Shown here: positions 4,072 to 52,966 of the stretch, one piece after another | Layout of the letters: every line of letters starts with the position of its first letter | Position numbering within the stretch: the first letter of the stretch is position 1 | Source: Spirochaetales bacterium | Lineage (GTDB): Bacteria; Spirochaetota; GWE2-31-10; MWDO01 | Length of the DNA: 64,000 nt | Assembly (NCBI GenBank): GCA_017540815.1 | Contig: JAFYAI010000016.1 | Span: 666 to 64,665 of the forward strand | Direction of reading: 5' to 3' | Made by a program: the position numbers and the translations under genes | Notes under the pieces: generated by a model | What the model was told of the DNA's origin: nothing | The model's database searches: none | What the model saw: the letters and a program-made list of their open reading frames with translations, nothing else

Positions 4072-5640
4072 TTATTTTGCATATTCAATGAATCTCGACT
4101 CTCGTATAACGGTAACTTTGATCTTACCGGGATATTTGAGTTCAGACTCAATCTGTTTAGCAATATCTCGTGCAATACCGATAGCCGCATCATCACTTGA
4201 CAATGTGCTGTTCAGCATTACGCGCAGTTCACGACCGGCCTGAATAGCAAATGCTTTCTCAACTCCGGAGAAGTTCTCGGCAATATGCTCCAAGTTCTCC
4301 AGCCGCTTAATGTAATTCTCCAAACTCTCTCGTCTTGCACCGGGACGACTTGCACTAATCGCATCCGCTGCCTGAACAAGTATGGCTTCCAGACATGTCG
4401 GTTCAACATCATTGTGATGTGCCAAGATACAGTTGAGGACTTTCTCATTCTCACCCATTTTCTTAGCCATCTCATAACCTGCTTCCGCATGGTTGTTCTC
4501 ACCGTCAGTCGTAGCACCTTTACCAATATCGTGCAGTAATCCGCCTCGCTTGGCAATATTTTCATCGCAGCCAAGTTCCCGTGCCAACGCACCGGCAATG
4601 GTTGCAACATCGATAGAATGCTGTAAGACATTCTGTCCGTAACTGGTTCTGAAATACAGCCTACCGAGAGCCATAATGCCCTCCGTAGAGAAACCAGGCA
4701 TCCCAACTTCGAGAGTAGCTTCTTCACCCTTGTCAAAGATCGTTTCATTTACCTCATCCAGCACCTTCTTAGTCACCTCTTCGATGCGAGCAGGATGAAT
4801 ACGACCATCAGTCACGAGCCGATTGAGCACAATCTTAGCCACCTCTCGTCTGATCGGATCAAAACTTGAAATAACTATCGCCTCAGGCGTATCATCGATA
4901 ATTATATCCACACCAATGAGTGTCTCCAAAGTCCGGATATTTCGTCCTTCGCGCCCAATAATGCGACCTTTCATCTCATCGTTAGGCAGCGACACACTTG
5001 TAGTGGTTATATCAGATGTAACTTCCGAGGAAATACGCTGTATTGTAGAAACGAGTATCTCTCTGGCTTTATGTTTCGCAACAATCTCAGTCTCTTCCTC
5101 AATCTTACGAATATAGATTGCGGCTTCCTGACGAGCCTTGTCTTCCAAATCTCTGATAAGAGCCGCTTTCGCCTGCTCGGAAGTCATACCTGAGATACGC
5201 TCCAACTCAGCTATACACTTTTCCTGCATAGCATTCAGAGAAGCAATCTTTTCGTTCAGGTGACGCTCCTTATCGGTAACGCTCTGCTCACGGCGTTCCA
5301 TCTCGGATGCTTTCTTATCAAGCTGATCCTCTTTCTGCTGGTTTCGCCGCTCAAGATTTTTTAACTCATTCCTACGTTCTTTGTTCTCCCGCTCAAATTC
5401 CTTCTTTTCACTATCGAAATTCTCTCTCTCTTTGAGTATTTTAGATTGAGCTTCCAATAATGCGTTTTTCTTGATGGATTCTGAGTCAAGTTTTGCCTGA
5501 TTTCTTATATCTTCGGCTTGCTTTTCTATTGTAGTCAGATTTTTGCGTGCAAGTATTCGTCTGATTACAAAACCAATGACACCGCCAAGGAGGATTGATA
5601 CTACAGCTGTTACAATTATACTAATAATCAGCATCGTCAT
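4072..5640 (-). CDS. rny: Ribonuclease Y
   Basis: N-terminal TM helix, long coiled-coil, KH domain (GREGRNIR), HD domain (LLHDIGK). 522 aa. Confidence 0.95.
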   Translation of the reverse strand: MTMLIISIIVTAVVSILLGGVIGFVIRRILARKNLTTIEKQAEDIRNQAKLDSESIKKNALLEAQSKILKERENFDSEKKEFERENKERRNELKNLERRNQQKEDQLDKKASEMERREQSVTDKERHLNEKIASLNAMQEKCIAELERISGMTSEQAKAALIRDLEDKARQEAAIYIRKIEEETEIVAKHKAREILVSTIQRISSEVTSDITTTSVSLPNDEMKGRIIGREGRNIRTLETLIGVDIIIDDTPEAIVISSFDPIRREVAKIVLNRLVTDGRIHPARIEEVTKKVLDEVNETIFDKGEEATLEVGMPGFSTEGIMALGRLYFRTSYGQNVLQHSIDVATIAGALARELGCDENIAKRGGLLHDIGKGATTDGENNHAEAGYEMAKKMGENEKVLNCILAHHNDVEPTCLEAILVQAADAISASRPGARRESLENYIKRLENLEHIAENFSGVEKAFAIQAGRELRVMLNSTLSSDDAAIGIARDIAKQIESELKYPGKIKVTVIRESRFIEYAK

Positions 5641-10178: not shown

Positions 10179-12327
10179 GCTCGCTCCTTGTAAATATAAT
10201 CGGCGACTTAATGAAATGATCTATCCGCAGCACATCTCTGCGATAGCCGTCATAGTCAGCCGGTGGGATAACAGTCACCTTGCGGACAAACTTTGATGTG
10301 AATGTGACCGTATCACCATCATCGTTCGCTGCGGACTCAAATTTGCCGCTGTATGAGAAATACTTATTATCAATGTTCAATTCTTCAGGCAGCCCTGACA
10401 GTGCCAACTCTTTCGGCAGGTGTAGCATAAGAGTGCGATTCTCACCGAATGTTGTTGCATACTTAATCGGATATTTGCGGCTCTGCAGCGTTGTCTCACC
10501 ATAATCGCTCTTAAACGGCAGGCGGAAGACCATATACGGTCCGCAGTCTTTAAGAATATCTGTCGCCTGATAGTTATACTCCATCGTAAAATCCTTAGTG
10601 AAGTCCCGACCGTCATCGTGCGAATAACCTGTCAATCGGCTGCCGGGATAATTGTTGCTCACTATCGAAGTGAAGAGCCCTTTGACTTCCGCCTCATTCA
10701 TACTGCTGAAATAATACCGCATCGATGACTCCCAGCTGCCGCGGTAGATATTAGTCTGCTTAACAGAGCCTTTGCCATCGGCAGCAACTGTAATATCGCA
10801 GGCAAAATGCTGAGTATTATATGAGACATCAGGCGGCTCGATCTCGCGTATCGTATTGAGGATAGGATTCCAAGCAGGTATGCCGTGATCATCCGATCGG
10901 AAATACGGATATTTGTCAGTAGTGCTTGTCGAATCAAGATATATCACCCGTCCGTCTGCAAGATGAATCTCATTAATAGCATGATTGCCGGCACGAGAAC
11001 CGATCTTATCATAAGGCACACGCGGATTATCATTGGTATAAACAATAACAGGATAGGCATCAATGCCGATGTCCCGCAGGATGGTAGCGAAGAAGATAGA
11101 CTTATCGATACAGTCACCGTATCTGTTGGAGAATGTCTCAGCCGCCGGATGACCTGCCATTCCTGAAGAGATACTCGTCTTAACCGAGCGGTAATGCACA
11201 TAATCCTGAACAAACCGATACAAAGCGGCGATCTTCTCTTCTTCCGTCTCGGCGTTAGCCTTGCTAATCACTTCGGCGACAGCAGCACGCATATCATCGC
11301 TGCACACCATCCGTTCCTTGAAGAAACCGCTTAGCCACTTAGACAGATAAGTCTGATCATTGAATGTGCTGCCGCTCAAAACAGGAAGAAGTGCAGCCTG
11401 CGGAGGGCATAGCGGCTCTGATACAAACGGCTCACATTCTCCGCGGCGGAATGTATAAGATGTATAGCCGCCTTTCGTCGATACTATAGGCTTGTCGCTA
11501 AACTTGCCGAAGTTGGATATTGCCCAATAGTATGGAACATTCTGTGGCACTGTCAGCGTCACTATCGACTCATAGACAGGCACATCCGTTCCGAAATACC
11601 AGCCTGTATAGAACTGATTGGGATCTTCAGGTTTCGACTCAACAGTCTCATAAACATAGTCGATGATCGAGCCGACTTCCACATTCGGGATAACAGCCTT
11701 CATAATATACGCATCTTTGCGGCCTGAGAAAAACTGCAAGCCCTGCGACGGATAAGTCCTTGTAATGTCAGAGTCTTTAAGATATGCAACTTTGCCGTCA
11801 GGTGAAATACTGCGTGCCATCAGGATCTTAGTCTCGTATTCACCCTCATTGTTGTAGAATGACAACTGAGCGTTGGACAGCTCTTTCTCATTGAGGATCT
11901 GCACTGTATATCGTGAGCGTGAATACTGCGACTTATCGGCATTCATCTTCAGCTCGCCCTCGTCAAGCAGCACAAGACGGCCGCTATCGGGATACTTGCT
12001 TCGCAGAATGCCGGCTCGCCGAATGAGTTCCGCCGGACTCACATTATCTCTAAATGTCACTGCCGGTTTATCGTCATTTTTAACAGTATTAAACCTTATC
12101 ACAGCGACATCTTCGGTCGGCACAACATCCCCATCTATAGTCAGAATGTTATCTTTATATATAATCCTGCCTTCACCGACTGTCGCCTTATCCCAGCCGA
12201 CAGCCTGATCCGCGGCGTTCGCCGCCATTGCAGTTATGATTATCATTAATAATGGAAGAAGTTTTTTCATAAAATTATCCTTGATTTTCTCAAGATATAA
12301 TATAATAAAAAATAAATAATTCGTCAA
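10168..12327 (-). CDS. Exported transglutaminase-like protein (DUF3857-type N-domain plus transglutaminase core)
   Basis: Signal peptide. Core Cys context GDCIDKSIFFATILRDIGIDAYPV. Confidence 0.75.
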   Translation of the reverse strand: MTNYLFFIILYLEKIKDNFMKKLLPLLMIIITAMAANAADQAVGWDKATVGEGRIIYKDNILTIDGDVVPTEDVAVIRFNTVKNDDKPAVTFRDNVSPAELIRRAGILRSKYPDSGRLVLLDEGELKMNADKSQYSRSRYTVQILNEKELSNAQLSFYNNEGEYETKILMARSISPDGKVAYLKDSDITRTYPSQGLQFFSGRKDAYIMKAVIPNVEVGSIIDYVYETVESKPEDPNQFYTGWYFGTDVPVYESIVTLTVPQNVPYYWAISNFGKFSDKPIVSTKGGYTSYTFRRGECEPFVSEPLCPPQAALLPVLSGSTFNDQTYLSKWLSGFFKERMVCSDDMRAAVAEVISKANAETEEEKIAALYRFVQDYVHYRSVKTSISSGMAGHPAAETFSNRYGDCIDKSIFFATILRDIGIDAYPVIVYTNDNPRVPYDKIGSRAGNHAINEIHLADGRVIYLDSTSTTDKYPYFRSDDHGIPAWNPILNTIREIEPPDVSYNTQHFACDITVAADGKGSVKQTNIYRGSWESSMRYYFSSMNEAEVKGLFTSIVSNNYPGSRLTGYSHDDGRDFTKDFTMEYNYQATDILKDCGPYMVFRLPFKSDYGETTLQSRKYPIKYATTFGENRTLMLHLPKELALSGLPEELNIDNKYFSYSGKFESAANDDGDTVTFTSKFVRKVTVIPPADYDGYRRDVLRIDHFIKSPIIFTRSEHVR

Positions 12328-15419: not shown

Positions 15420-16943
15420 CTACTGAATCCCAAACTCATCACAAACTTTATCAACAGCCAAGTTCCAGACTTTTTGAACACTTTCTTTAGTATAACCTTT
15501 AGAAGTTGAAAATTCGTGAATATTTTCAGGCTTTTTTGCAAGTGAGTTTTCAATAACTATATTGCGGCCACTTTCATAAATACGATATGCCTTATATAAA
15601 CCACTTCTTGTTCCAAGATATTCAAACTTTTTGCTTTTGACCTTATATTCACCTTTTTTTACAGTACCATTAGTATTCAGAATATCCCGAACATTATCAC
15701 AGAATTTTGAAATATAATTTGCAATCAAATCTTCTTCTGCTTTCTTCTCTCGTGCAATACGTTCTGCTTCTGCTTTTTCACGAGCGATGCGAGCTTTTTC
15801 TGCAGCTATCGCTGCTTTTTTAATCGATAATTCATCAAAAACATTTTTCAATGCGTTGTAATCACTCTTCTTAACATAAGTATGAGCCCAATAATCACCT
15901 GGTTCCACAGAAAAAAATAAAAATTTAGGTTCTACAGTATATTTATTAGACATAGATTCATTCGATACCTCTATAGGAAGTGTAAAATCACTGGCTTCCA
16001 TCAACAATTTAAAAGCCTCAATATTACCAAGAAGTATAGGAAGCACAAATAACATATCGGAAGAGCCAGAAAATCTACCACCTCTCTTCGTTCCAAGTAA
16101 CTTTATTCGTTTTGTCAAATCTACCCCTTTAGCTATATAATCCTTTACTATTGCAAGAGATTTTTCATAATCCATAGAAGTATTATAATTTGCTATAAAC
16201 TTCATAAATTCTATTTCTTCTTGACTTACTAAATGTGTACAATATTTTGGAACAATTTCATTTATAAAATATGGAGTAATCATTCCATCATAACTAGTAT
16301 TCAAATCATAAGAATCTGTAGCCTCTAACAATTCAATAACTTCTGGTTTATTGACAAATAGTAATAGTTCTTTCACCGGTACTTTATAACCAGATTTTAA
16401 ATACGATTTAATAGCAGACATATCACCTGTAAGAAGTTGATAATATATAGAATCAACCGCTGTTACTATTGGATTATATTGTAATAGGGTTAAAATAGGA
16501 ATGATATAATAAGATTTGACATCATAAGAGAACCAATTTGCTTCCAAAAAAGTGTCAATCGCTGTCTTATTGTTCTTCCATTTTCTATTTACATCATCAT
16601 ACTTTTTATCATACATATACACCACCTTATCAAAAGTATAGCCAACACGTTGATAAGAATAATATTCAGCAAAATAATTATGTGCATAATCAATCACAGC
16701 ACCCTTCTCCATAAGATAATCAATGCATTTCTTATACATTTCATCTTTTCCTTCATATATAGGCCAATTTTTCAGACATATTTCAAGCAATCTAGAATCG
16801 CCTTTTACATCATAGTCCAACAATTCTATCTGCTTCTTCATAGTATCAAAATCACCACTTGCAGCAGCATCTGTCAACTTGCTCGCCATCGCACCCCACA
16901 CACAACAAAACACCAAACCAGTCACTAATAATTTCTTCTTCAT
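15420..16943 (-). CDS. Hypothetical exported protein, 507 aa, with a coiled-coil KAEAERIAREK segment
   Basis: Signal peptide MKKKLLVTGLVFCCVWGAMA. AAGGAGG RBS. AT-rich. Confidence 0.5.
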   Translation of the reverse strand: MKKKLLVTGLVFCCVWGAMASKLTDAAASGDFDTMKKQIELLDYDVKGDSRLLEICLKNWPIYEGKDEMYKKCIDYLMEKGAVIDYAHNYFAEYYSYQRVGYTFDKVVYMYDKKYDDVNRKWKNNKTAIDTFLEANWFSYDVKSYYIIPILTLLQYNPIVTAVDSIYYQLLTGDMSAIKSYLKSGYKVPVKELLLFVNKPEVIELLEATDSYDLNTSYDGMITPYFINEIVPKYCTHLVSQEEIEFMKFIANYNTSMDYEKSLAIVKDYIAKGVDLTKRIKLLGTKRGGRFSGSSDMLFVLPILLGNIEAFKLLMEASDFTLPIEVSNESMSNKYTVEPKFLFFSVEPGDYWAHTYVKKSDYNALKNVFDELSIKKAAIAAEKARIAREKAEAERIAREKKAEEDLIANYISKFCDNVRDILNTNGTVKKGEYKVKSKKFEYLGTRSGLYKAYRIYESGRNIVIENSLAKKPENIHEFSTSKGYTKESVQKVWNLAVDKVCDEFGIQ

Positions 16944-16970
16944 AAGAAATCCTCCTTAAATAATATATAG

Positions 16971-17062
16971 TCTCTCCCAATTCTGTTTGCTTAGAAGAGG
17001 AATCATTTAGTTTGTTCTGTCAAGAACAAACTAAATGTGGTATACCACATTTCAGATTTTTT
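16971..17062 (-). repeat. Conserved leader element copy 1: two adjacent palindromes upstream of the 507-aa exported-protein gene
   Basis: tttgcttagaagaggaatcatttagtttgttcTGTCAAgaacaaactaaatgtggtataccacattt. Near-identical copy at 46836-46928. Confidence 0.8.
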
Positions 17063-17174
17063 TTAAATTTACGCTATAGACATACCATCAGTCCAATATT
17101 ACAATACTATAATATTTAGTGATTGTCAAGAAATAAAATACAATAGTATAAATTTACTTGACAAATGAGGTTTT

Positions 17175-17522
17175 ATGATGCTAAATGAACGAATAAAAGA
17201 ACAGCGGATATTACATGGGTTAAATCAGGTGGAACTTGCGAAAAGACTCGGAGTCTCCAAGCAAAGCGTGTCAAATTGGGAGAATGACAACATTCAGCCG
17301 TCTATAGATATGCTTATACGAATATCGCATTTTTTCTCGGTGAGTACGGATTATTTGTTAGGCGAAGACAATCGCAAATATATAGAAGTATCAAATCTGA
17401 CTAAACGGGAACTCAGACACATTCAATATATAATAAATGATATAGTACATGCAAAATGGGGGAAAGGCAAAAATATAAAACGGCATCACGCCAAATCATC
17501 CGATATTCAGGATCTTCAATGA
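17175..17522 (+). CDS. XRE-family HTH transcriptional regulator
   Basis: LNQVELAKRLGVSKQSVSNWEN helix-turn-helix. Confidence 0.8.
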   Translation: MMLNERIKEQRILHGLNQVELAKRLGVSKQSVSNWENDNIQPSIDMLIRISHFFSVSTDYLLGEDNRKYIEVSNLTKRELRHIQYIINDIVHAKWGKGKNIKRHHAKSSDIQDLQ

Positions 17523-21519: not shown

Positions 21520-21556
21520 AAAAAAACGGATTTTGCAAAGCAAAATCCGTTTTTTG
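21520..21556. terminator. Bidirectional terminator between the ATPase and MCP genes
   Basis: aaaaaaacggattttgcaaagcaaaatccgttttttg. Confidence 0.7.
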
Positions 21557-36083: not shown

Positions 36084-37067
36084 ATGAAATTATCAAGACA
36101 AAATATAATAATCGGTTTGAGTTGTCTGCTTGTCCTGCAGATCGTGATATTAATGTTTTTATATGTATTTAACTTTCAGAATGCCAAGATTAGAGCGATT
36201 GAGAAGCCGCTCATTGCCGGTCTGACTGAGAAGAATATTACAGGACTGGAGATCAAGGACTATATGGACAGTTTCTCTGTCAAGAAAGACGGCAGCGGTG
36301 TGTGGTTCGTCTATGTAGGTGAGAATACGATGCCTGTGAATGTCAGCAAGGTTCAGAGTTATATCAAAGATCTTGCAGAGATGAAACAGGGCGTAGCCGT
36401 TGCCAATACGCCGGACAGCAGTCTCGACAGCAAATACGGTTTCGATGAGAAGAACTGTCAGGAACTGACAATTCTCTGCGGCAGCAAGAAATATTCAATG
36501 CTTATCGGAAATACAGGCTCGAAGCGCGGTACTTCATATATCAAGTATAACGGTGAGAAGAAGATCCGCGAAGTGAAGTCTGTTGTCGCTACGGAGACAT
36601 CCAATCAGCCGATCAACTGGGCTCGCCGTGAGATACTCGGCAACATCCCTGAAAATGATGTGAAGAATTACGCTGTTGAGTCAACTCTTAGCTGGTTTAA
36701 CGGGAGCTATTCATTCTCTGCGAAGGAAAATACTGTCAAGGACAACACAAGCGATGCTCCTGATACATATCGGTTGGATACACCGCTGTCTGATCCTAAC
36801 AAGAAACTGTCAGACTATGTAATGCAGCGTCTTATGAAAGAAGTCCTGACGATGAAAGCAAGCGAATATAAGTTCGGTGCAACTTTGGCAGGCAGAACTA
36901 AGTCAGCTTCAATGCGTATCACTCTTAAGAATGAGAAAGTGATTAACCTGTCAGTCTACAACGCTGACGAAGATGACATAGGTGATTACATTATCGATTC
37001 GGATGCAGACAACTATCTGTATCTGATCCATGAAGAAGATCTAAAGAAAGCAGTGAAAGAACTGTAA
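36084..37067 (+). CDS. DUF4340-like membrane-anchored protein
   Basis: Single N-terminal TM. Conserved position after GldG-like genes. Confidence 0.55.
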   Translation: MKLSRQNIIIGLSCLLVLQIVILMFLYVFNFQNAKIRAIEKPLIAGLTEKNITGLEIKDYMDSFSVKKDGSGVWFVYVGENTMPVNVSKVQSYIKDLAEMKQGVAVANTPDSSLDSKYGFDEKNCQELTILCGSKKYSMLIGNTGSKRGTSYIKYNGEKKIREVKSVVATETSNQPINWARREILGNIPENDVKNYAVESTLSWFNGSYSFSAKENTVKDNTSDAPDTYRLDTPLSDPNKKLSDYVMQRLMKEVLTMKASEYKFGATLAGRTKSASMRITLKNEKVINLSVYNADEDDIGDYIIDSDADNYLYLIHEEDLKKAVKEL

Positions 37068-37107
37068 AAAAATAAGGAAGTTTGCTTGCAAACTTCCTTA
37101 TTTTTTT
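37066..37107. terminator. Bidirectional terminator
   Basis: aaaaaaataaggaagtttgcttgcaaacttccttattttttt. Confidence 0.7.
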
Positions 37108-39508
37108 ACCCTCGCATCATATCAAGATATGCCTGCAAATCATGAGGCAATTTGCCGTCTTCAAGATATTTGTGGTATCGGCTCTCCAACGACTTGTAGT
37201 CTCGATTGCGAATGTTGTTAAACTTCGTATCAAACTCTGTAAACAGCGGCAGCTTAGCAAGGTAAGTTCTGGTCTCTTTTGGGAATGGCACATACTTATA
37301 GAACATTCCTCGGACAACCTTGTTAAGTTTCGGTATTCCCTGACTTTCATTCTGCAGCCACAGCAGATAATCGGCAGCGAAGCGGTCTCGATCGATCTTT
37401 ATTCTTTGGAACTGGATCTTAATCAGTTCTTTCGCTTCAAGCGAAAGTTCCTTATAGTTCTTATCATAATACTGCGAGTAGTCGTAATACGAGCCGACAA
37501 GTCCGCCTTCCGTCGGATCCATCCAGTTCGCTCCGGCGATGACTTTGTTCAGCTCCCAGCGGAAATGAGCAAATGCCTTGATAGTCGCCTTCTCTATATC
37601 GCCGTTAAACAATATCGGCAACACAAGACGGCCTCTCGTCGATCGCATATTGTTGATCATCTCCTGCCACATCTGCACACGGACACCGCTGCTCGGCACA
37701 AGTATCATATAAGGTGTAACTTCTTTCTTGATCAACTCACTCTTGCCCGGGACTTTCCAAGTAGTCTCTCTGAAAAACAAAGTATAGTCCAGCTTGTTAA
37801 TCTTGTCAGTTATGACTTCCATACGCTTCGGCTGCATAAATATCCTGTTCGGAGCACCCTTGAACGAATGTTCCGTCAGCACAGGCACATACGCACGCAG
37901 GTTATCACTTGTGATACGCATTGCGGACTTAACCATATTGCTAATCTCGAAATCCAGCCTGCCGGCAGGTGTATCTTCAATGACTTTCTCATTCTTACTG
38001 AATGTCCTCTTAACCACTTTAGAGAAGATCTCACCGGTCTCCGACATACTAGGCTGCTCCGTGCCGTCATAGATAAGTCGCAGATAATCCACAAGTGTGA
38101 TCAGTTTGATCTTGCCGTTATACGGCTTGCGCAGGATGCCTACAGAATTCACAAGGAACTCTGCCTGCTCCTCAGTAATGAGCGTCTCATCAGCAAATCC
38201 GAAATAAAGGAACAAGGAGATCTCCAGCGGCAAACTGTCTATAAGATCCTTCTCGAAGACTTTCAGCAGAATGTTATAATACAGTGCGAAGAACTCCTCC
38301 TGCATCTTGCGGATAATCAGGCGAGAGTCTTTTGCCGTAGGATCCTGATAGTTGATATTTTTCAGATTCTTAATCGCTTTGGCAACAGAGTCTTTCTTCT
38401 CCTTAGACAAAGTTGAGAATCCCAATATCTTCTGCACTGAGCCTTTCAGTTTCTTCTTGAATGCACCATTGCTTGTAGCTGCCGTTTGAGCAGTCTCCTC
38501 TGTCGGAACAGATGCTGCATTCTTAATGAGTTTAGCATATTTATCCGTCGGACTTATATGCTCGATGCCGATCAACTGAGTGTAGTTCTTCTCCATATTG
38601 CGGCACAGTGATACAATGCCGTTGCACAGAGCCGGACCTCCAATCTTGCCCAGTTTATCGCCGCATTCCGAGATTCTGTTAAATGCAGACTGTTCATCAT
38701 CGAAGAACGAAGTAAATGCCTGATCAATCTGCTTCGAGCATTTTGCAGTCTCAATGTTTATCTCATCAATGATAGCGGCTAATTCTTTATAGATGTATGT
38801 ATATATCTTAGGATTGGCGAAGAACAATGCGGAAAATGCTTCCGGTTTGGACTTAATCAGATTATTGTAGAAGTCAAGCCGATTGAAGTCATATCGCTCA
38901 ACCGGATCGAATGACAGAACATTATAATTCGTGCCGAGCTGTTCAGAAAAGTCCTCCAACAGAAATGTCGGAGCAACAGAAGAGTCGATCTCTCCTCCGG
39001 CTGCACGGAAATGTTTCATCAGCGGAGTATCCTTCTTATTGATATGAGAGTACAGCAGCATCAGATTGTCAGAGACTTTCTGCATATCAGAAGCCATTCT
39101 TGCATATTTTTTCATATTATTCATCGACTTCTGCACAATGTCTCTCACGCCATTCAGAACATTCAGTGCAAGACCGGCATTCATCCGCAGGAAATCTACA
39201 ATCTCATTAGTCGTCTGCGGCACAGTAACTGTCATCGCCTGACAATCAGTCAATGCACGCACGGTAACTGTCTGCGGCTCTTCATTAATCAGATTGCTAA
39301 CACCGACAAACTCCTTGCCTGCCGTCATACCGATACGGCGGCTCGCACCGAGCAGTTCGCTCTGACTCATACCGTCATTTCTGTCGGCACAATACAGCAA
39401 CTCCGCAGTTCCTCCTCCGAGGACCGTTATCTGACGATAGTTGTCCCCCTGCATCGCTATTATATCGCCCTGCTTATATATTTTTTTATCGGATGTGAAT
39501 GTCTGACT
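37106..39508 (-). CDS. Large protein with an N-terminal cyclic-nucleotide-binding-like domain. Start at 39508 with GGAGG RBS; the ORF is open further to 39649.
   Basis: GDIIAMQGDNYRQITVLGGGTAELLY…RALTDCQAM resembles a cNMP-binding fold. The remaining roughly 650 aa are uncharacterised. Confidence 0.55.
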   Translation of the reverse strand, partial: SQTFTSDKKIYKQGDIIAMQGDNYRQITVLGGGTAELLYCADRNDGMSQSELLGASRRIGMTAGKEFVGVSNLINEEPQTVTVRALTDCQAMTVTVPQTTNEIVDFLRMNAGLALNVLNGVRDIVQKSMNNMKKYARMASDMQKVSDNLMLLYSHINKKDTPLMKHFRAAGGEIDSSVAPTFLLEDFSEQLGTNYNVLSFDPVERYDFNRLDFYNNLIKSKPEAFSALFFANPKIYTYIYKELAAIIDEINIETAKCSKQIDQAFTSFFDDEQSAFNRISECGDKLGKIGGPALCNGIVSLCRNMEKNYTQLIGIEHISPTDKYAKLIKNAASVPTEETAQTAATSNGAFKKKLKGSVQKILGFSTLSKEKKDSVAKAIKNLKNINYQDPTAKDSRLIIRKMQEEFFALYYNILLKVFEKDLIDSLPLEISLFLYFGFADETLITEEQAEFLVNSVGILRKPYNGKIKLITLVDYLRLIYDGTEQPSMSETGEIFSKVVKRTFSKNEKVIEDTPAGRLDFEISNMVKSAMRITSDNLRAYVPVLTEHSFKGAPNRIFMQPKRMEVITDKINKLDYTLFFRETTWKVPGKSELIKKEVTPYMILVPSSGVRVQMWQEMINNMRSTRGRLVLPILFNGDIEKATIKAFAHFRWELNKVIAGANWMDPTEGGLVGSYYDYSQYYDKNYKELSLEAKELIKIQFQRIKIDRDRFAADYLLWLQNESQGIPKLNKVVRGMFYKYVPFPKETRTYLAKLPLFTEFDTKFNNIRNRDYKSLESRYHKYLEDGKLPHDLQAYLDMMRG

Positions 39509-41172: not shown

Positions 41173-41225
41173 ATAAACCGGAGAATATAGAGCATCACCG
41201 CCGCAGGCGGTGATGCTCTATATTC

Positions 41226-41888
41226 TTATCCGCCTTTTTTATCAATATTTGCCTTAACCTTCTCCAAATCAGCGGCGATAACTTTCACTCGGATCTTATC
41301 AAAAAACTCAAAAGCAAAACTGTAGAATGCGATCTTATGCTTAATCCCTTTCTGCCGCATTATCGATCTCATCTCGTCTTTAATCCGCTGCTCCTCATCA
41401 TACATCGATATTTTCTCTTCGTAGAATGTCACATCCGCCACTGCGTAGTCTATCGTATCGAGAGTGATATTGCTCGTAAGGATGCCGCCGTTATCATATA
41501 CCGTTTTGCGGACAGCCCGATAGTATATATCGAGATTGAGATACCCGATCCGAGTCAGTTCTGTCAGCAGTTCTCTGAATCTCTTTGCCGTCGCCTCATC
41601 AGCACAGCCGTCCACGATACTCGCCATCTTCGCCAGCTGATAATGCAGTTTGATCGGCATAGTCCTCACATTAGGATAGTCACGCTGCCACGCACGCACA
41701 CTGTCTATGAATGCCCTCTTGCCGAGTTTGAGTACCAGCCGCTCGGTAAATGACTTATCTTTATAGTTGTCATATTCTGAGATGAGCAGGTCGGCGATCT
41801 GACCGACGATCTGACCGTCTGTCACATTCTGTGCAAATGCTGTCAAAGGCAGAATAAAAATAATCAATACGAAAATCTTCTTTGTCAT
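41226..41888 (-). CDS. Hypothetical exported protein
   Basis: Signal peptide MTKKIFVLIIFILPLTAFAQ. Confidence 0.5.
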   Translation of the reverse strand: MTKKIFVLIIFILPLTAFAQNVTDGQIVGQIADLLISEYDNYKDKSFTERLVLKLGKRAFIDSVRAWQRDYPNVRTMPIKLHYQLAKMASIVDGCADEATAKRFRELLTELTRIGYLNLDIYYRAVRKTVYDNGGILTSNITLDTIDYAVADVTFYEEKISMYDEEQRIKDEMRSIMRQKGIKHKIAFYSFAFEFFDKIRVKVIAADLEKVKANIDKKGG

Positions 41889-43292: not shown

Positions 43293-43333
43293 AAAAACTC
43301 CGAAAAAATCAAAGATTTTTTCGGAGTTTTTTG
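43293..43333. terminator. Bidirectional terminator hairpin. Member of the conserved-core hairpin family.
   Basis: aaaaactccgaaaaaatcAAAgattttttcggagttttttg. Confidence 0.7.
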
Positions 43334-44081: not shown

Positions 44082-44133
44082 TTATAATTATAACAAAAAA
44101 TCCGAAAAAATCAATGATTTTTTCGGATTTTTT
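44082..44133. terminator. Terminator hairpin of the same family, with the conserved 5' flank ttataattataacaaaaaa
   Basis: aaaaaatccgaaaaaatcAATgattttttcggattttttg. Confidence 0.7.
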
Positions 44134-44172
44134 GAAACCTGTCAATCTTAGCTGTATTCCTTGTCTTTACCG

Positions 44173-46809
44173 TTAATGGTTGTTGTGCTCCTCTGCGACT
44201 TGACCAGGAGTTTTACCATCTCGTGCACCCTGTTCTATCTCTTTAATAGAAGGTTTAGTAAAATTCACATCACCATCAACATATTCATTCACAGCTGGAT
44301 TTGCAGGATAGCCATCTGCACTATACAGTATCCATAAAGCCATGCCAGCTGGCGCTCTTGATACTTCATCAGCAGACAAGTCACGTAAATCATATCCATA
44401 TGCGACAGCATCAAGACAAGCCCTATGTCCATCCTTCACAGCTTCTTTTCTTACAATAACAACAGGAAGGCCGTTTCCTTCTGGTAAATTTTGAGGAGCA
44501 GGACCTGCGATGTCGAGTACACCTACAGCATGAGTACCAATATAGCCATAACCAGTGGTATACATATCCACAAACTTAACATCAGAAAGATCTATCTCAT
44601 ACCGTATATTGAAAGCAGGCAAAAACACGCCAAATGACTCTTTATCTTGAATGGCTTGGCCGAGTTCATTAGACCAAAAATCATTAGGATTAGAATGCAT
44701 CGATAATTCATACTCTACAATTCTATCGATCTGAGACTGTTGCACTTTATCAAAATCAATCTTTGTACCATCATCTACAACACACCAGTTGCGTATATTT
44801 TCACAGCGATCATCTGAATGAGCGGCATACCAGGCAAGCAAGCCGGCAGGAAGTTTTGGACAGTCGGGATTCACTTCGTTGCCGTTGCCGGTATATATCG
44901 ATGGATAATCAGGAGTTCGGTAGCCATCGACATAATATCTTCCAAATACATCAATCTTCGATAAAGCACCAAGCTGATGATACTTTTCGATAATCTTGCC
45001 TATCAAAGAACAGTTTATAACCCAATTTATACCACTACCGCTATATGATTCTTTACCTCTATATGATCCCTGTTTGAACTCATCATCATTTATTCCAAAC
45101 ATCTCAACACCCCATAAGCCTGTTATATCAATCACAGGCAGCTGATCAGCAAAAGTAATAGAATCTATATCTAAGCCTAATAATTTCACAGCATAATCAA
45201 CATCAAGATTAGATACCGCTCCATCTCCACCATTATAACAATAATCATAGCCTACAAGTTTGAGTTTATTCCAGTCATCCACTCTCAGCGATGCACCTTC
45301 TTCCAACCAGAAGAGTCCTTTAAAATCAGAATGCCAGCGATAAACAAGATCTTGATAAATCGGTTCATATTCATCTGTCGTTCCTGCAATAACACTAAAT
45401 TCCGAATATTCCATCCACTGACTGTGAATATTTATCTCACCGGACAAACTCAATGTTCTGCCGCTCTCAACCTGAATTGAGTAAGCATACATATCACCAT
45501 GAAACATAGTCATACTATCAGATACCTGTAAACCTGATGCTAATACAAAATTAATACCCGGAATATATTCCAAGATTACCATATCATCCCGAATTCCATA
45601 TACTTTTTCACTTTCATAATCATAAAGAACCATATTAGTATAATCCCTCATAGAATTTAAAAAATCTAATGGACGAAGATGATGATACTCTCCTTTACAT
45701 TCATCAATCTCATAAAATCCATGCTGTCTTGTATAATCAATAAAAAAATCTATTATGATTTCCTGCTGATTCTTTCGTGTCCAAGCTGTATGACCAGAAG
45801 CACTATCCCCCATAGATAAGTCAGTCGGTTCATCCGGCACATCCAAGTGATAAACGACAGATTTCGGTATATCATCATATATCACACGCCCTGCACCTGC
45901 TTCAATCACTGCTTTTTTCAAAGCATAATAATCCATAATATCAAGGTCTGTTACACTATCAGCAACTCGTATTCGCACAAGATTATCTTTAACCAACTCT
46001 GCTGAAAATGTCGTTCCCTTACCTGTGTAAGTGATAATATAAGCATCATCAGGCGAGATAACTTTAATCGGCAGAGTGATATATACCCATTTCTCAGGAT
46101 AACTTTCAAATTTATATTTGATATAAACATTTTGTGTTCCCAACTTCGTCATATCAGGATCATCATATTCCAAAAATCCGGGATATTTTTGTTGAGATAC
46201 AGTTCCTTTCCAAGTAAAGCTATTTCCTTCCATTACATAATCGCTGCTTCTGTCACAGATGTCATAGACAAGCCATAACAGCGAAAACTCCTCTCCCGGC
46301 AAATATATCGATGAGAAAAACGGAGCATCCTCATGGATTCTGCCATAATATTGAGGTAAGTTGATGCTTATAGGCAGAGTTACAGAATACGGCTTATTCT
46401 GATATTGAAATGTCAGCACAACATTCTGAGTTCCTTTTTCAGCCATATTCGGTGCTGTATAGTCAAATGTTGTATCAGTATGCGACAACTCCTGCATAGT
46501 GTAGCCTGCATCATCATATATCGTAACACACAGTCCATCAAGGCTGAATGTCTCATTCTCGATATATTCCGTCTTAGGAAATGCAGTAATTACAGCAGTA
46601 AATTTTGATTCATCTATATCAGATTGAGAATTGCTTCCGCTATTGCTGTCGCTGCTGCTACTGCTGCTGTCATCACTGTTATTGCCGGAACTATTGCTGC
46701 CACCGCTTATTGTCGTTTCATTATTAGTGCTCCGCTCGATTCCATTAGGACAGCCGCACAGCACCGCCGCTATCACAGCTGCCGCAAAAATTAAATAAAA
46801 TTTTTTCAT
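44173..46809 (-). CDS. Large surface lipoprotein, 878 aa, with a Ser/Asn-rich linker. Function unknown.
   Basis: Lipobox-like LCGCP after a signal peptide. Low-complexity SGGSNSSGNNSDDSSSSSSDSNSGSNS segment. Confidence 0.6.
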   Translation of the reverse strand: MKKFYLIFAAAVIAAVLCGCPNGIERSTNNETTISGGSNSSGNNSDDSSSSSSDSNSGSNSQSDIDESKFTAVITAFPKTEYIENETFSLDGLCVTIYDDAGYTMQELSHTDTTFDYTAPNMAEKGTQNVVLTFQYQNKPYSVTLPISINLPQYYGRIHEDAPFFSSIYLPGEEFSLLWLVYDICDRSSDYVMEGNSFTWKGTVSQQKYPGFLEYDDPDMTKLGTQNVYIKYKFESYPEKWVYITLPIKVISPDDAYIITYTGKGTTFSAELVKDNLVRIRVADSVTDLDIMDYYALKKAVIEAGAGRVIYDDIPKSVVYHLDVPDEPTDLSMGDSASGHTAWTRKNQQEIIIDFFIDYTRQHGFYEIDECKGEYHHLRPLDFLNSMRDYTNMVLYDYESEKVYGIRDDMVILEYIPGINFVLASGLQVSDSMTMFHGDMYAYSIQVESGRTLSLSGEINIHSQWMEYSEFSVIAGTTDEYEPIYQDLVYRWHSDFKGLFWLEEGASLRVDDWNKLKLVGYDYCYNGGDGAVSNLDVDYAVKLLGLDIDSITFADQLPVIDITGLWGVEMFGINDDEFKQGSYRGKESYSGSGINWVINCSLIGKIIEKYHQLGALSKIDVFGRYYVDGYRTPDYPSIYTGNGNEVNPDCPKLPAGLLAWYAAHSDDRCENIRNWCVVDDGTKIDFDKVQQSQIDRIVEYELSMHSNPNDFWSNELGQAIQDKESFGVFLPAFNIRYEIDLSDVKFVDMYTTGYGYIGTHAVGVLDIAGPAPQNLPEGNGLPVVIVRKEAVKDGHRACLDAVAYGYDLRDLSADEVSRAPAGMALWILYSADGYPANPAVNEYVDGDVNFTKPSIKEIEQGARDGKTPGQVAEEHNNH

Positions 46810-46835
46810 TACATCCTCCTATGAAAATACAATCT

Positions 46836-46928
46836 CTCCTAATCTTATTTGCTTAGAAGAGGAATCATTTATGTTGTTCTGTCAAGAACAACATAAATGG
46901 AGTATACTCCATTTAAAAATTTTTTGAT
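46836..46928 (-). repeat. Conserved leader element copy 2 upstream of the 878-aa lipoprotein gene
   Basis: tttgcttagaagaggaatcatttatgttgttcTGTCAAgaacaacataaatggagtatactccattt. Differences from copy 1 are compensatory within both palindromes. Confidence 0.8.
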
Positions 46929-47776
46929 TTTTGGGCGTGATTCATCACGCCCGTACATACAAAAAACTCTCACATCATTTAAGTGATATTGTACGTACGG
47001 GTTCGATTTATCGAACCCAAACAATATATATTTGTTTGATTAGAAATAGAATTAAAAGAAAAAACAACTTGTTCTCATTCGAGACCTCCACAACTGATTT
47101 TAGCTATAAAAAACCCCGCATCAACAAATGTTCACTCAGGCAGCAGAATACTCAGTTGTGGAGAAATACTCATCAGCCTCATTTATAGATGCGAGAGTTT
47201 TCCAAAGAATTCCCCACATATAATGAGACCACATCTGAATATTCGCAACATTGACCGGCAAGGAGTGAATCTCACCTGTCAATGAATTTTTATAACATAA
47301 CAAAATAATATGTCATAATTTTGAATTTGTCAAGCGAAAAAAATTCCATTTGCATTTATTCCATTGGAAGACAAAGTTTTCGCTCTCAATCAACCTGCGA
47401 TGATTGTTGTTGCAGATCCACCTGTCTCATCATCGGAACATACTTCATACAGCGGCATTTCTGCAGAATGCAGCAACCCAAATCAAAATCACATCGAGAC
47501 CGCCAAATCGCTTTTCGGCATTCTATCAAACGATATGACATTAGAAGAAGCTAAGGCAGAGAGATTATACCAAATCTAAAGTACCGGTGCTAAATCCTGC
47601 TGATTTTTTGGAATTACTAAAAGCAAATATTACAAAATAATAAAAAATTACAATTTTTTAATTGAAAATTTTCCAAAATATGTTATTATAATAGTGAAGG
47701 AATAGATTCCTCGACTTCGCTCGGAATGACATATTTTAGTCATTCAAGATAGCACGAGTAAAAAGGACAATAAAAA

Positions 47777-48211
47777 ATGACAGTAAATACAAAGGCTTTC
47801 GGACCGACTGAGGTTTCCGAACAGCAAAGATTGACCTGCGATGACGGGCTTTTGGGGTTCAATGACATACATTCGTTTTATCTGATCGATTATCCCGATC
47901 CGAATACGCCATTCTATCTGCTGCAGTCAGATGAGCATACGGAGATCGCTTTTGTGCTGATCGATCCGACTCTGATAATGCCGGATTATCAGCTGAGCGT
48001 CTCGGACAAAGATCTGCGTCAGATCGGAGTGGAGAATCCATCCGATGTGCTGTATTTCTCAATCGTCACAATATATGACAATCCGCAGGACAGCACAGTC
48101 AATCTGCTCGGTCCGATTGTGATAAACAAGAAAAACCACAAGGCAAAGCAGATGATCAGTCAGAATGACGACTACTCCGTGCGTTATCCGCTGTTCAAAG
48201 GGGGCAACTGA
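47777..48211 (+). CDS. fliW: Flagellar assembly factor FliW
   Basis: [19 protein letters not shown] and the FYLLQS region match FliW. Confidence 0.85.
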
Positions 48212-48438
48212 TGTTAATCCTCGCCCGTAAAGAAGAGCAGTCCATAATGATCGGAGACAGTATTGAAGTCTCGATACTCAGCATTAAAGGCGACCATGTA
48301 AAGATCGGCATTAATGCACCTGGAGATGTCAAAGTCTACCGCAAAGAGGTTTTTGAGGAGATCCAATCTGCCAATATCGAAGCCGCTAAAACTGACGCAA
48401 GCAAGATCGCACAATTAGGCAATTTATTTAAGAAATAA
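48211..48438 (+). CDS. csrA: Carbon storage regulator CsrA
   Basis: [37 protein letters not shown]. Overlapping stop/start with fliW. Confidence 0.93.
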
Positions 48439-48468
48439 CAAAAGGCTGTCCGCAGGACAGCCTTTTGT
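48436..48468 (+). terminator. Terminator after csrA
   Basis: aacaaaaggctgtccgcaggacagccttttgtt. Confidence 0.7.
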
Positions 48469-48496
48469 TATTTCTTATTTATTTTTTATTTATTTC

Positions 48497-52914: not shown

Positions 52915-52966
52915 ACAAAAAACAGAAAAAAGTCAAAGACTTTTTTCTGTTTTTTGAGATGAGAGG
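52915..52966. terminator. Terminator hairpin of the conserved-core family with the tataattataacaaaaaa flank
   Basis: aaaaaacagaaaaaagtcAAAgacttttttctgttttttg. Confidence 0.7.

Follow-up and report, generated by a model that had tools for sequence, protein, structure and literature searches.

Stable hairpins in the 5' untranslated regions (5' UTRs) of highly expressed and often exported proteins are known from the ompA leader of Escherichia coli and the aprE and ermC leaders of Bacillus subtilis, and these can be transplanted; they are locus-specific and form the extreme 5' terminus of the primary transcript. The Correia or NEMIS elements of Neisseria are repeated palindromes which become part of 5' UTRs by co-transcription, fold into a long perfect hairpin, are substrates of RNase III and alter the fate of the mRNA; they are miniature inverted-repeat transposable elements (MITEs), bounded by terminal inverted repeats, with duplication of a TA target, and are found in either orientation. 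The ospC operator of Borrelia consists of two adjacent inverted repeats situated upstream of the promoter and acting in DNA. In Staphylococcus aureus saePQRS, RNase Y is guided by a duplex of 24 bp to a site 6 nucleotides (nt) upstream, where it cuts, with the upstream fragment being destabilised and the downstream one stabilised (PMC5449607), and the RNase Y determinants of S. aureus cggR/gapR-gapA are portable to foreign transcripts (PMC11321564). The TD-1 and TD-2 motifs of Treponema denticola, neither of which has a known function, are multi-copy hairpin motifs with covariation and modular stems, some instances of which overlap as reverse complements sharing two hairpins; TD-1 for the most part occupies a 5' regulatory position relative to many different, poorly characterised genes, and the authors report a noticeable number of stem-breaking mutations in the two motifs (Weinberg et al. 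2007, PMC1950547). Here we describe a leader element, present in two copies in a 64,000-nt stretch of a Spirochaetales bacterium genome (GenBank assembly GCA_017540815.1, contig JAFYAI010000016.1, positions 666 to 64,665 of the forward strand; hereafter the window), which precedes the genes for a 507-amino acid (aa) exported protein (copy 1) and an 878-aa lipoprotein (copy 2).

The analysis presented below makes it highly probable that this element is a cis-acting RNA leader module functioning on the sense strand. It belongs to a small family of folded RNA leaders in uncultured, probably Treponema-like gut spirochaetes. Gene regulation in spirochaetes is poorly understood and the Treponema-like gut lineages are mostly uncultured; a covarying cassette found before lipoprotein, exported-protein and restriction-modification genes is of interest as a candidate regulon of surface and accessory functions, and it constitutes a defined RNA whose stems, loops and A-tract are open to experiment.

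Structure of the element in the window

The first-pass annotation of the window had singled out two look-alike stretches, and these are real: the window contains the invariant 23-mer AAATGATTCCTCTTCTAAGCAAA at two sites and no others, on the minus strand at 17008-16986 (copy 1) and 46870-46848 (copy 2), where none is expected by chance and 0 of 100 shuffles gave even one. The annotation had further held that every difference between the copies within the two palindromes, A and B, is compensated, which proved correct, as all 8 differences inside A and B are paired changes (GTGG/CCAC versus GGAG/CTCC in palindrome A and TAGTTTG/CAAACTA versus TATGTTG/CAACATA in palindrome B, for copy 1 versus copy 2). 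The loop of B, earlier given as TGTCAA, is a plus-strand reading; both genes, and the element with them, are on the minus strand, and the loop on the gene strand is TTGACA. Likewise, the invariant tail is gattcctcttctaagcaaa (gattcc...), and the previous rendering as gaatcc... was wrong. An extent of about 90 nt with two palindromes had been proposed, of which A and B themselves were borne out, while the limits and the number of hairpins fell short, there being three hairpins and a similarity that continues beyond both ends. The similarity runs on past ...gcaaa, as the tail supplies the 5' arm and also the loop of hairpin C, which extends towards the Shine-Dalgarno sequence (SD); at the other end, an A-rich tract upstream of hairpin A is also common to both window copies.

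From 5' to 3', the order of features is the A-rich tract, hairpin A, hairpin B, a short GAUU linker, hairpin C, the SD and the ATG. On the gene strand, copy 1 reads AAATTTAAAAAAAATCTGAA-ATGTGGTATACCACAT-TTAGTTTGTTC-TTGACA-GAACAAACTAAATG-ATT-CCTCTTCTAAGCAAACAGAATTGGGAGAGA...AAGGAGG...ATG, and copy 2 follows the same plan. Folding predicts the same three hairpins in both copies: hairpin A with an 8-bp stem and the loop UAUA (about -7.7 kcal/mol), hairpin B with a 14-15 bp stem and the loop UUGACA or UGAC (about -16.7 kcal/mol), and hairpin C with 9 bp formed by CUCUUCUAA and UUgGGAGAG (in DNA, CTCTTCTAA and TTgGGAGAG) around a 10-nt loop (about -10 kcal/mol). Palindromes A and B overlap by CAT(TT), with the central CAUUU being able to extend either A or B. 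The purine-rich 3' arm of hairpin C is an SD look-alike about 20 nt ahead of the real SD, and its pyrimidine arm can also pair with the real SD.

In copy 1, with all features on the minus strand, the A-rich tract AAATTTAAAAAAAATCTG (17053..17070) is expected to be single-stranded, and every close copy has its counterpart. In copy 1 the tract is followed by hairpin A, AAATGTGG-TATA-CCACATTT (17033..17052; 8 bp, about -7.6 kcal/mol), hairpin B, CATTTAGTTTGTTC-TTGACA-GAACAAACTAAATG (17004..17037; about -16.6 kcal/mol), whose first bases overlap the 3' arm of A, and hairpin C, CTCTTCTAA-gcaaacagaa-TTGGGAGAG (16972..16999), with 9 bp, two U·G pairs and an SD-like 3' arm; the SD AAGGAGG and the ATG of the 507-aa exported protein occupy 16941..16957. 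In copy 2, likewise on the minus strand, a GC-rich hairpin, GGGCGTGATGAATCACGCCC (46933..46952), directly precedes the A-rich tract; this hairpin is also found in two further loci described below (L207 and L219), and analogous GC hairpins are seen in three others (L004, L201 and L227). The A-rich tract of copy 2, AAAAATCAAAAAATTTTT (46915..46932), is predicted to be unpaired and is followed by hairpin A, AAATGGAG-TATA-CTCCATTT (46895..46914), hairpin B, CATTTATGTTGTTC-TTGACA-GAACAACATAAATG (46866..46899), hairpin C, CTCTTCTAA-gcaaataaga-TTAGGAGAG (46834..46861), and the SD AGGAGG with the ATG of the 878-aa lipoprotein (46807..46820), where the predicted fold pairs the SD region with the stretch just upstream.

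Further copies, covariation and the transcribed strand

A wider search for copies, as had been proposed along with the original observation, added 12 close copies from metagenomes and a further 4 that are distant, with only compensatory change seen in the stems. The 507-aa protein has only 7 detectable relatives, and a search of their contigs for the leader yielded L004 and the truncated L001, in which A, B and C are present and B takes yet another compensated form, the third. A further 9 close copies (L172, L182, L189, L192, L201, L207, L212, L219 and L223) came from a degenerate scan of metagenomes, and one more, L227, was found through protein homology alone, upstream of a 34%-identical protein. 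Scanning an 18-mer core over 185,579 species genomes produced 83 genome matches, mostly a coding motif (VVLDRTKE) or unrelated promoters and SOS boxes; the distant hairpin pairs among them lie in two metagenome-assembled genomes (MAGs) labelled 'Treponema sp.' (L005 and L019) and in one Pasteurellaceae genome (L051). A viral scan gave a single doubtful relative, L090. No copy was obtained by blastn of plasmid and phage collections, a covariance model built from the alignment (R1) gave no further copies in the loci already collected, and homologues of the 878-aa protein at 30% identity are without such a leader. Adjoining hairpin pairs with the B core GTTC-TTGACA-GAAC are present at 2047-2095 of L051, at about 486-560 of L056 (Fluviicola) and at 10190-10240 of the prophage-like L090, and these three distant copies, from unrelated phyla, may be convergent, transferred or chance matches among loci selected by the search. 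In L005 (1024-1064), an inverted B-like 6-nt loop generates a near-consensus promoter which points away from the downstream gene.

Across 11 aligned copies, 198 of 198 stem cells of A and B form standard pairs, and double-sided compensatory change is seen at 6 pairs (18 cells). The observed covariation score was reached by 0 of 500 shuffles, and slid controls pair only 38-49% of cells. Hairpin A occurs in at least four stem versions (GTGG/CCAC, GGAG/CUCC, GUAG/CUAC and GAAG/CUUC), in addition to an exchange of UG/CA and AG/CU. As hairpin A formed part of no search pattern, its covariation is free of search bias, while the use of the B core for finding most of the copies biases the apparent conservation of B. 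In L227, GTTC-TTGACA-GAAC is kept together with one more compensated pair, AGTTC/GAACT, which falls within the part of B fixed by the search, and UUGACA is retained in 4 copies found without the B core in the query. The sequence G-UAUA-C of hairpin A is present in every close copy and in the distant L005 and L051, with differing A loops in L019 and L090; the identity of loop A is 1.0, as against 0.75-0.82 for the flanks and the outer B stem. That the stems remain perfect despite flanks diverged by 20-25% points to selection. The 11-copy covariation and the extra compensated pair of L227 favour the selected RNA structure suggested by the first-pass annotation; its alternative of a symmetric operator is disfavoured, as half-site positions covary where such an operator should keep them fixed.

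Hairpin C displays a different pattern of variation. All 8 of its inner pairs remain paired across copies, and the only changes are C-G to U·G or U-A to U·G, with 8 of 72 cells being U·G and none A·C. These wobbles would be A·C mismatches on the opposite strand, which indicates that hairpin C is an RNA helix on the strand of the gene. Its changes are one-sided, with no double compensation, and its covariation score lacks significance, being equalled or exceeded by 306 of 500 shuffles. The orientation of the element is also tied to that of the gene: all 17 copies with a readable downstream gene face it, 49-173 nt before its start (17/17; binomial p = 1.5e-5), and in 16 of 17 copies the B loop points the same way with respect to the gene, though the searches were strand-symmetric.

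The promoter candidate previously noted upstream of copy 1, TTGACA-N17-TATTGT (17101..17129, minus strand), is real, with 10 of 12 matches to a sigma-70-like consensus and conservation in L002, L003 and L212; its predicted start lies about 42 nt upstream of hairpin A. Copy 2 is preceded, at a distance of about 380 nt, by a promoter of the form TTGACA-N17-TATTAT, which five other loci have conserved. From these conserved upstream promoters and the G·U wobbles of hairpin C, which are permitted on the sense strand only, the element can be inferred to lie within the sense transcript, and its earlier placement in the 5' UTR is accordingly upheld at the level of sequence.

Several other readings of its sequence signals were rejected. 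The loop TTGACA does not serve as a sigma-70 -35 box, as no TAnnnT -10 box is found at 16-18 bp in 14 copies, the sequences 17 bp after it being CCTCTT, GTCTTC, TGTCTC and similar ones, and promoter scans reported none that uses it; moreover, the start implied by such a promoter would fall in the loop of hairpin C, with loss of the 5' arm of C, in conflict with the evidence for C. Inspection by eye for a sigma-28 promoter gave TAAA-N15-GCAAA without the CGA core, that for a sigma-54 promoter no GG-N10-GC, and that for an extracytoplasmic function (ECF)-type promoter GAAC-N17-TCTAA, which is not conserved. The A-tract was dismissed as an UP element or -10 box for want of usable hexamers after it. 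A small open reading frame (ORF) from the ATG of hairpin A was rejected too, as it reads ATG-TAG in L189, has AAG in L182 and shows no conserved stop position. A BoxA-like reading of TCTTCTAAGCAA (GTTCTTTAAAGCAAT in L219) would need two insertions relative to GCTCTTTAACAA.

Downstream genes, modularity and the long leader

The first-pass annotation had tied the element to genes for exported proteins, and as an enrichment this link stands: the 507-aa exported family lies downstream of copy 1, L004, L201, L212 and L227, and lipoprotein genes lie downstream of copy 2, L189, L192 and L207. As an exclusive association it does not, since methylase and small cytoplasmic-looking proteins are also encoded downstream, namely a 760-aa N6-adenine methyltransferase-like protein with an NPPY motif, a restriction-modification methylase, in L172 and small cytoplasmic-looking proteins in L182 and L219. 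The existence of these non-exported products makes the connection an enrichment and not a rule. Judged from the sequences, the cassette is portable, being joined to different promoters and different genes. In copy 1 it stands behind a plain promoter, without an upstream ORF or switch. In L201, a 46-nt insertion with two extra hairpins, one of them GC-rich (CCCCACATCGTGTGGGG), is present at 1128-1175 between B and CGATTG/hairpin C, and it follows from this insertion that B and C need no fixed spacing. Conversely, L002 and L003 share with copy 1 the same divergent XRE gene, promoter, hairpin C, SD and gene and have neither A nor B; in place of these, they have a different hairpin near the predicted transcription start, ATTGGACTG..CAGTCCAAT.

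A more surprising result came from outside the coordinates originally described, in the form of a long leader with an upstream ORF ahead of copy 2. In 6 loci (copy 2, L004, L172, L201, L207 and L227), about half of the copies found, the cassette forms the 3' end of a conserved leader of about 480 nt. The upstream part of this leader in copy 2 (about 280 nt; 47052..47333, minus strand) is predicted to be a structured domain with covarying alternative helices, and comprises the promoter TTGACA-N17-TATTAT (47333-47305), a terminator-like stem with a T-run (47122-47108), an SD, GGAGG (47089-47085), and an upstream ORF of 8 codons, MRTSCFFF* (47078-47052), all on the minus strand. Equivalent upstream parts lie at 2055-2344 of L004, 5377-5662 of L172, 742-1018 of L201, 1728-2016 of L207 and about 2545-2830 of L227. 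The six loci have in common the promoter, a covarying 5' hairpin and a terminator-like stem with a U-run after it. A helix of 9-15 bp, X1:M, can be formed in all six (6/6) with six unrelated sequences, and a competing helix of 8-10 bp, M:X2, in 4 of 6, with X2 abutting the SD of the 8-codon upstream ORF. The upstream ORF always has 8 codons followed by UAA, and encodes MRTSCFFF, MRTNSIFF, MRTNSFFL, MRTKSFFT, MRTRFFLI or MRTNSIST. The spacer from the upstream ORF to hairpin A measures 37-133 nt and is not consistently C-rich and G-poor. The long leader matched no Rfam family. To go by its sequence, it looks like an undescribed RNA switch, riboswitch-like or attenuator-like, with A, B and C as its constant 3' end. 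A more extended proposal is that A-B-C is a constant output module, that the region of about 280 nt is a sensor with mutually exclusive helices (X1:M versus M:X2), that a dedicated factor reads the loops, and that a whole set of accessory surface, exported and restriction-modification genes in Treponema-like gut spirochaetes are thereby placed under one signal; we offer this as speculation that is rather unlikely to hold in its entirety.

Other features were noted in the vicinity of these leaders. Tandem CATAATT heptamers and a palindromic terminator are found just upstream of the long-leader promoter in L004 (1970-2010) and L227 (2470-2500), and these repeats could be a simple-sequence contingency tract. 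Three tandem units of about 22 nt (ATTTTACATTTATGAGGTATTT) lie about 130-200 nt upstream of the element in L182 (reverse strand), and two copies of ATCTTTGATTATACGCA at 250-300 of L189; both sets have the appearance of iterons or operators. At 17124-17171 and 17175-17522, copy 1 is adjoined by a divergent XRE-family gene of 115 aa, and the inverted pair TTGTCAAG and CTTGACAA surrounds the shared XRE/copy 1 promoter region and is kept in L002; from its sequence and position, it is probably the XRE operator. A fliW-csrA operon (FliW of 144 aa and CsrA of 75 aa; 47777-48438, plus strand) diverges from the leader of copy 2, about 450 nt beyond its promoter. The sequence gtcattccgagcgaagtcgaggaatc (about 47705-47730, minus strand) resembles what we take to be the repeat behind the spurious 'HSERSRGI' ORFs of many genomes.

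Proposed mode of action and comparison with described systems

The explanation that we tentatively prefer, while according it somewhat under an even chance as a whole, is that the element is the 3' module of a transcribed 5' leader, a portable cis-acting RNA which undergoes RNase-Y-type processing. The element would act in cis, at the RNA level and after the start of transcription. A and B would stack into a helix of about 23 bp beside the A-rich tract, serving as a guide and stabiliser structure of the RNase Y type; a cut in the A-tract would separate off the upstream part, be it the switch or the plain promoter leader, and the 5' end of the remaining mRNA would be shielded by the hairpins, with hairpin C tuning the accessibility of the SD to ribosomes. 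The predicted unpaired A-tract, directly followed by the 8 and 15 bp of A and B, fits the sae-type guide architecture, and an RNase Y gene is present in the window (4072-5640). As a mechanism for the element, RNase-Y-type processing and stabilisation, which we propose by analogy, is possible and yet rather doubtful.

Several observations weigh against this explanation. A and B are dispensable to the gene, as L002 and L003 demonstrate, and the invariant loops (G-UAUA-C and UUGACA) are not explained by a passive stabiliser. G·U pairs make up 1 of 198 cells in A and B versus 8 of 72 in C (Fisher p = 1.3e-4), and such avoidance also fits a constraint at the DNA level or on both strands. The intergenic terminators of this genome are long palindromes (arms of 16-23 nt) of AT-rich sequence, 100% perfect and with A-tracts and T-tracts as arms, even between co-directional genes (for example, at 48429-48477, 37064-37109, 41182-41226, 44094-44134, 52916-52956, 43293-43331 and 21521-21555); as ordinary terminators are thus perfect palindromes too, perfect pairing is possibly a habit of the genome and not a feature of the element. 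Further, copy-2-type elements are without the G near the putative cut site which is preferred by S. aureus RNase Y, and it is from sequence that we infer transcription, 5' ends and cleavage of this leader alike.

The invariance of the loops is best accounted for if the UAUA and UUGACA loops, presented on variable stems, form an RNA operator bound by a dedicated trans-acting factor, either an RNA-binding protein (for instance, an antiterminator or translational regulator) or a small RNA, which co-regulates a regulon. The loops and their closing pairs are invariant while the stems covary and the flanks diverge, the UAUA loop is kept even in the distant L005 and L051, the orientation of the B loop is maintained in 16 of 17 copies, and the downstream genes are functionally unrelated, as expected of a regulon tag. 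However, no factor gene consistently adjoins the element, the XRE gene being found beside copy 1 only and still present in L002, where A and B are missing; the conservation of the B loop is partly due to the design of the search, and L019 and L090 carry different A loops. The loops of A and B are also without the GGA motif that CsrA would need, and a CsrA site was rejected on this ground even with fliW and csrA 1 kb away. Overall, we regard such an operator as fairly unlikely. The notion that A is a weak bidirectional terminator, and A and B pause hairpins for an intrinsic or Rho-dependent decision governed by the upstream switch and upstream ORF, appears more unlikely still. A loose scan does flag A and B as terminator-like on the gene strand and A on both strands (3 sites versus 0.2 and 0.7 expected), A has A-rich sequence before it and, throughout the copies, U-rich sequence after it, an upstream ORF and a G-poor spacer precede six of the copies, and the hairpin pair of L090 sits between two co-directional genes. 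Yet A is weak (-5.4 to -7.8 kcal/mol, versus -18 to -21 for the real terminators of the genome), and B has its U-rich arm first, an A-rich 3' arm and a tail that is not U-rich, and so would be unable to terminate on either strand. No conserved antiterminator or alternative pairing was found for A and B, and at copy 1, which has no upstream ORF or switch, a terminator would simply silence the gene. The variable length of the spacer between the upstream ORF and A (37-133 nt), together with its not being consistently C-rich and G-poor, tells against this notion and likewise led us to reject a Rho loading site in that region.

An element acting at the level of DNA, be it an extruded cruciform or hairpin bound by a structure-specific protein, an antisense promoter or a lox/dif-like recombination core that shuffles leaders, appears improbable. 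The strict Watson-Crick pairing of A and B in 197 of 198 cells would agree with it, as would the geometry of A, a perfect 20-bp palindrome including its centre, and of B, with 14-bp arms and a lox-like 6-bp asymmetric spacer. The antisense strand offers CTGTCA-N18-TATACT (9 of 12 matches), and the inverted spacer of L005 gives TTGACA-N17-TAGCAT (10 of 12 matches); in addition, the copies combine variants of A with variants of B in different ways, and leaders and genes are reshuffled. Nevertheless, copy-1-type elements read TATACC, without the key final T of a -10 box, and a duplex operator should have fixed half-sites, whereas those of this element covary. In particular, a dimeric helix-turn-helix operator was rejected because the positions of A about 3.5, 4.5 and 6.5 bp from its centre and the outer B stem vary and always covary, and because the XRE gene occurs beside copy 1 only and is retained in L002 without A and B. 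Recombination in the spacer between unlike copies should leave mismatched arms, none of which are seen in 14 copies; only 2 copies are present in the window, 30 kb apart and not flanking modules. While the architecture of B fits a lox/dif comparison, its arms covary, hybrid arms are missing from the 14 copies and no recombinase gene is associated. The fixed orientation relative to the downstream gene, and hairpin C, clearly a sense-strand RNA feature only 4-10 nt away, also argue against action in DNA. A dif/Xer site was rejected, as was an integron attC site, direct reading revealing no R''/R' core sites (RYYYAAC / GTTRRRY), no bulges and, with 2 copies 30 kb apart, no array. Finally, a selfish or neutral repeat, in the form of a unit like a MITE or a repetitive extragenic palindrome (REP) or of a recently duplicated leader without its own function, is very improbable. 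The element is multi-copy, is missing from one orthologous site (L002 and L003) and resides in accessory regions, beside toxin-antitoxin and restriction-modification genes, all of which would accord with such a repeat; but it has no terminal inverted repeats and no clean target-site duplication, and was not found in the plasmid or phage collections. A MITE or REP was rejected on the co-orientation of all 17 copies with their genes and on the comparison of filled and empty sites, the difference in L002 being a replacement without duplication and not a clean insertion. The perfection of the stems beside flanks diverged by 20-25% points to selection instead.

In comparison with described systems, of which TD-1 and TD-2 are the nearest, the element adds to the known repeated cis-regulatory leader RNAs, with no Rfam family matched: Rfam release 15 gave no match at the gathering threshold in the whole window, and TD-1 and TD-2 were absent at E values up to 10 for copies 1 and 2, the best match being manA-II with 25.9 bits versus a threshold of 100. 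The 18-mer core was found in none of the named T. denticola-type genomes of the species-representative scan. Like TD-1 and TD-2, the element is multi-copy, lies 5' of diverse genes and has two hairpins which can be read on both strands, a resemblance in kind only; unlike in those motifs, stem-breaking mutations are essentially absent. With the Correia elements it shares the repeated palindromic unit in the leaders of unrelated genes and none of their MITE features. Its two contiguous palindromes before a spirochaete surface-lipoprotein gene recall the ospC operator, but they lie downstream of conserved promoters and beside a sense-specific RNA hairpin. With regard to its putative function, RNase Y guides and 5'-UTR stabiliser hairpins offer the best analogies, Correia elements and the ospC operator being looser ones. 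Unlike the hairpins of ompA, aprE and ermC, those of this element stand off from the predicted start, by a distance of about 42 nt in copy 1 and up to about 380 nt in copy 2. As in the sae RNase Y guide, a single-stranded site lies directly upstream of a long duplex, of 24 bp in sae and 23 predicted stacked bp here. The described RNase Y guides, however, are single Firmicute loci for which conserved loops are not known to be required, whereas this element is a repeated family whose cleavage is a prediction. Should the processing and stabilising model hold true, RNase-Y guide structures would no longer be confined to single Firmicute loci, and would be known from another phylum as a reusable natural 'insulator' part.

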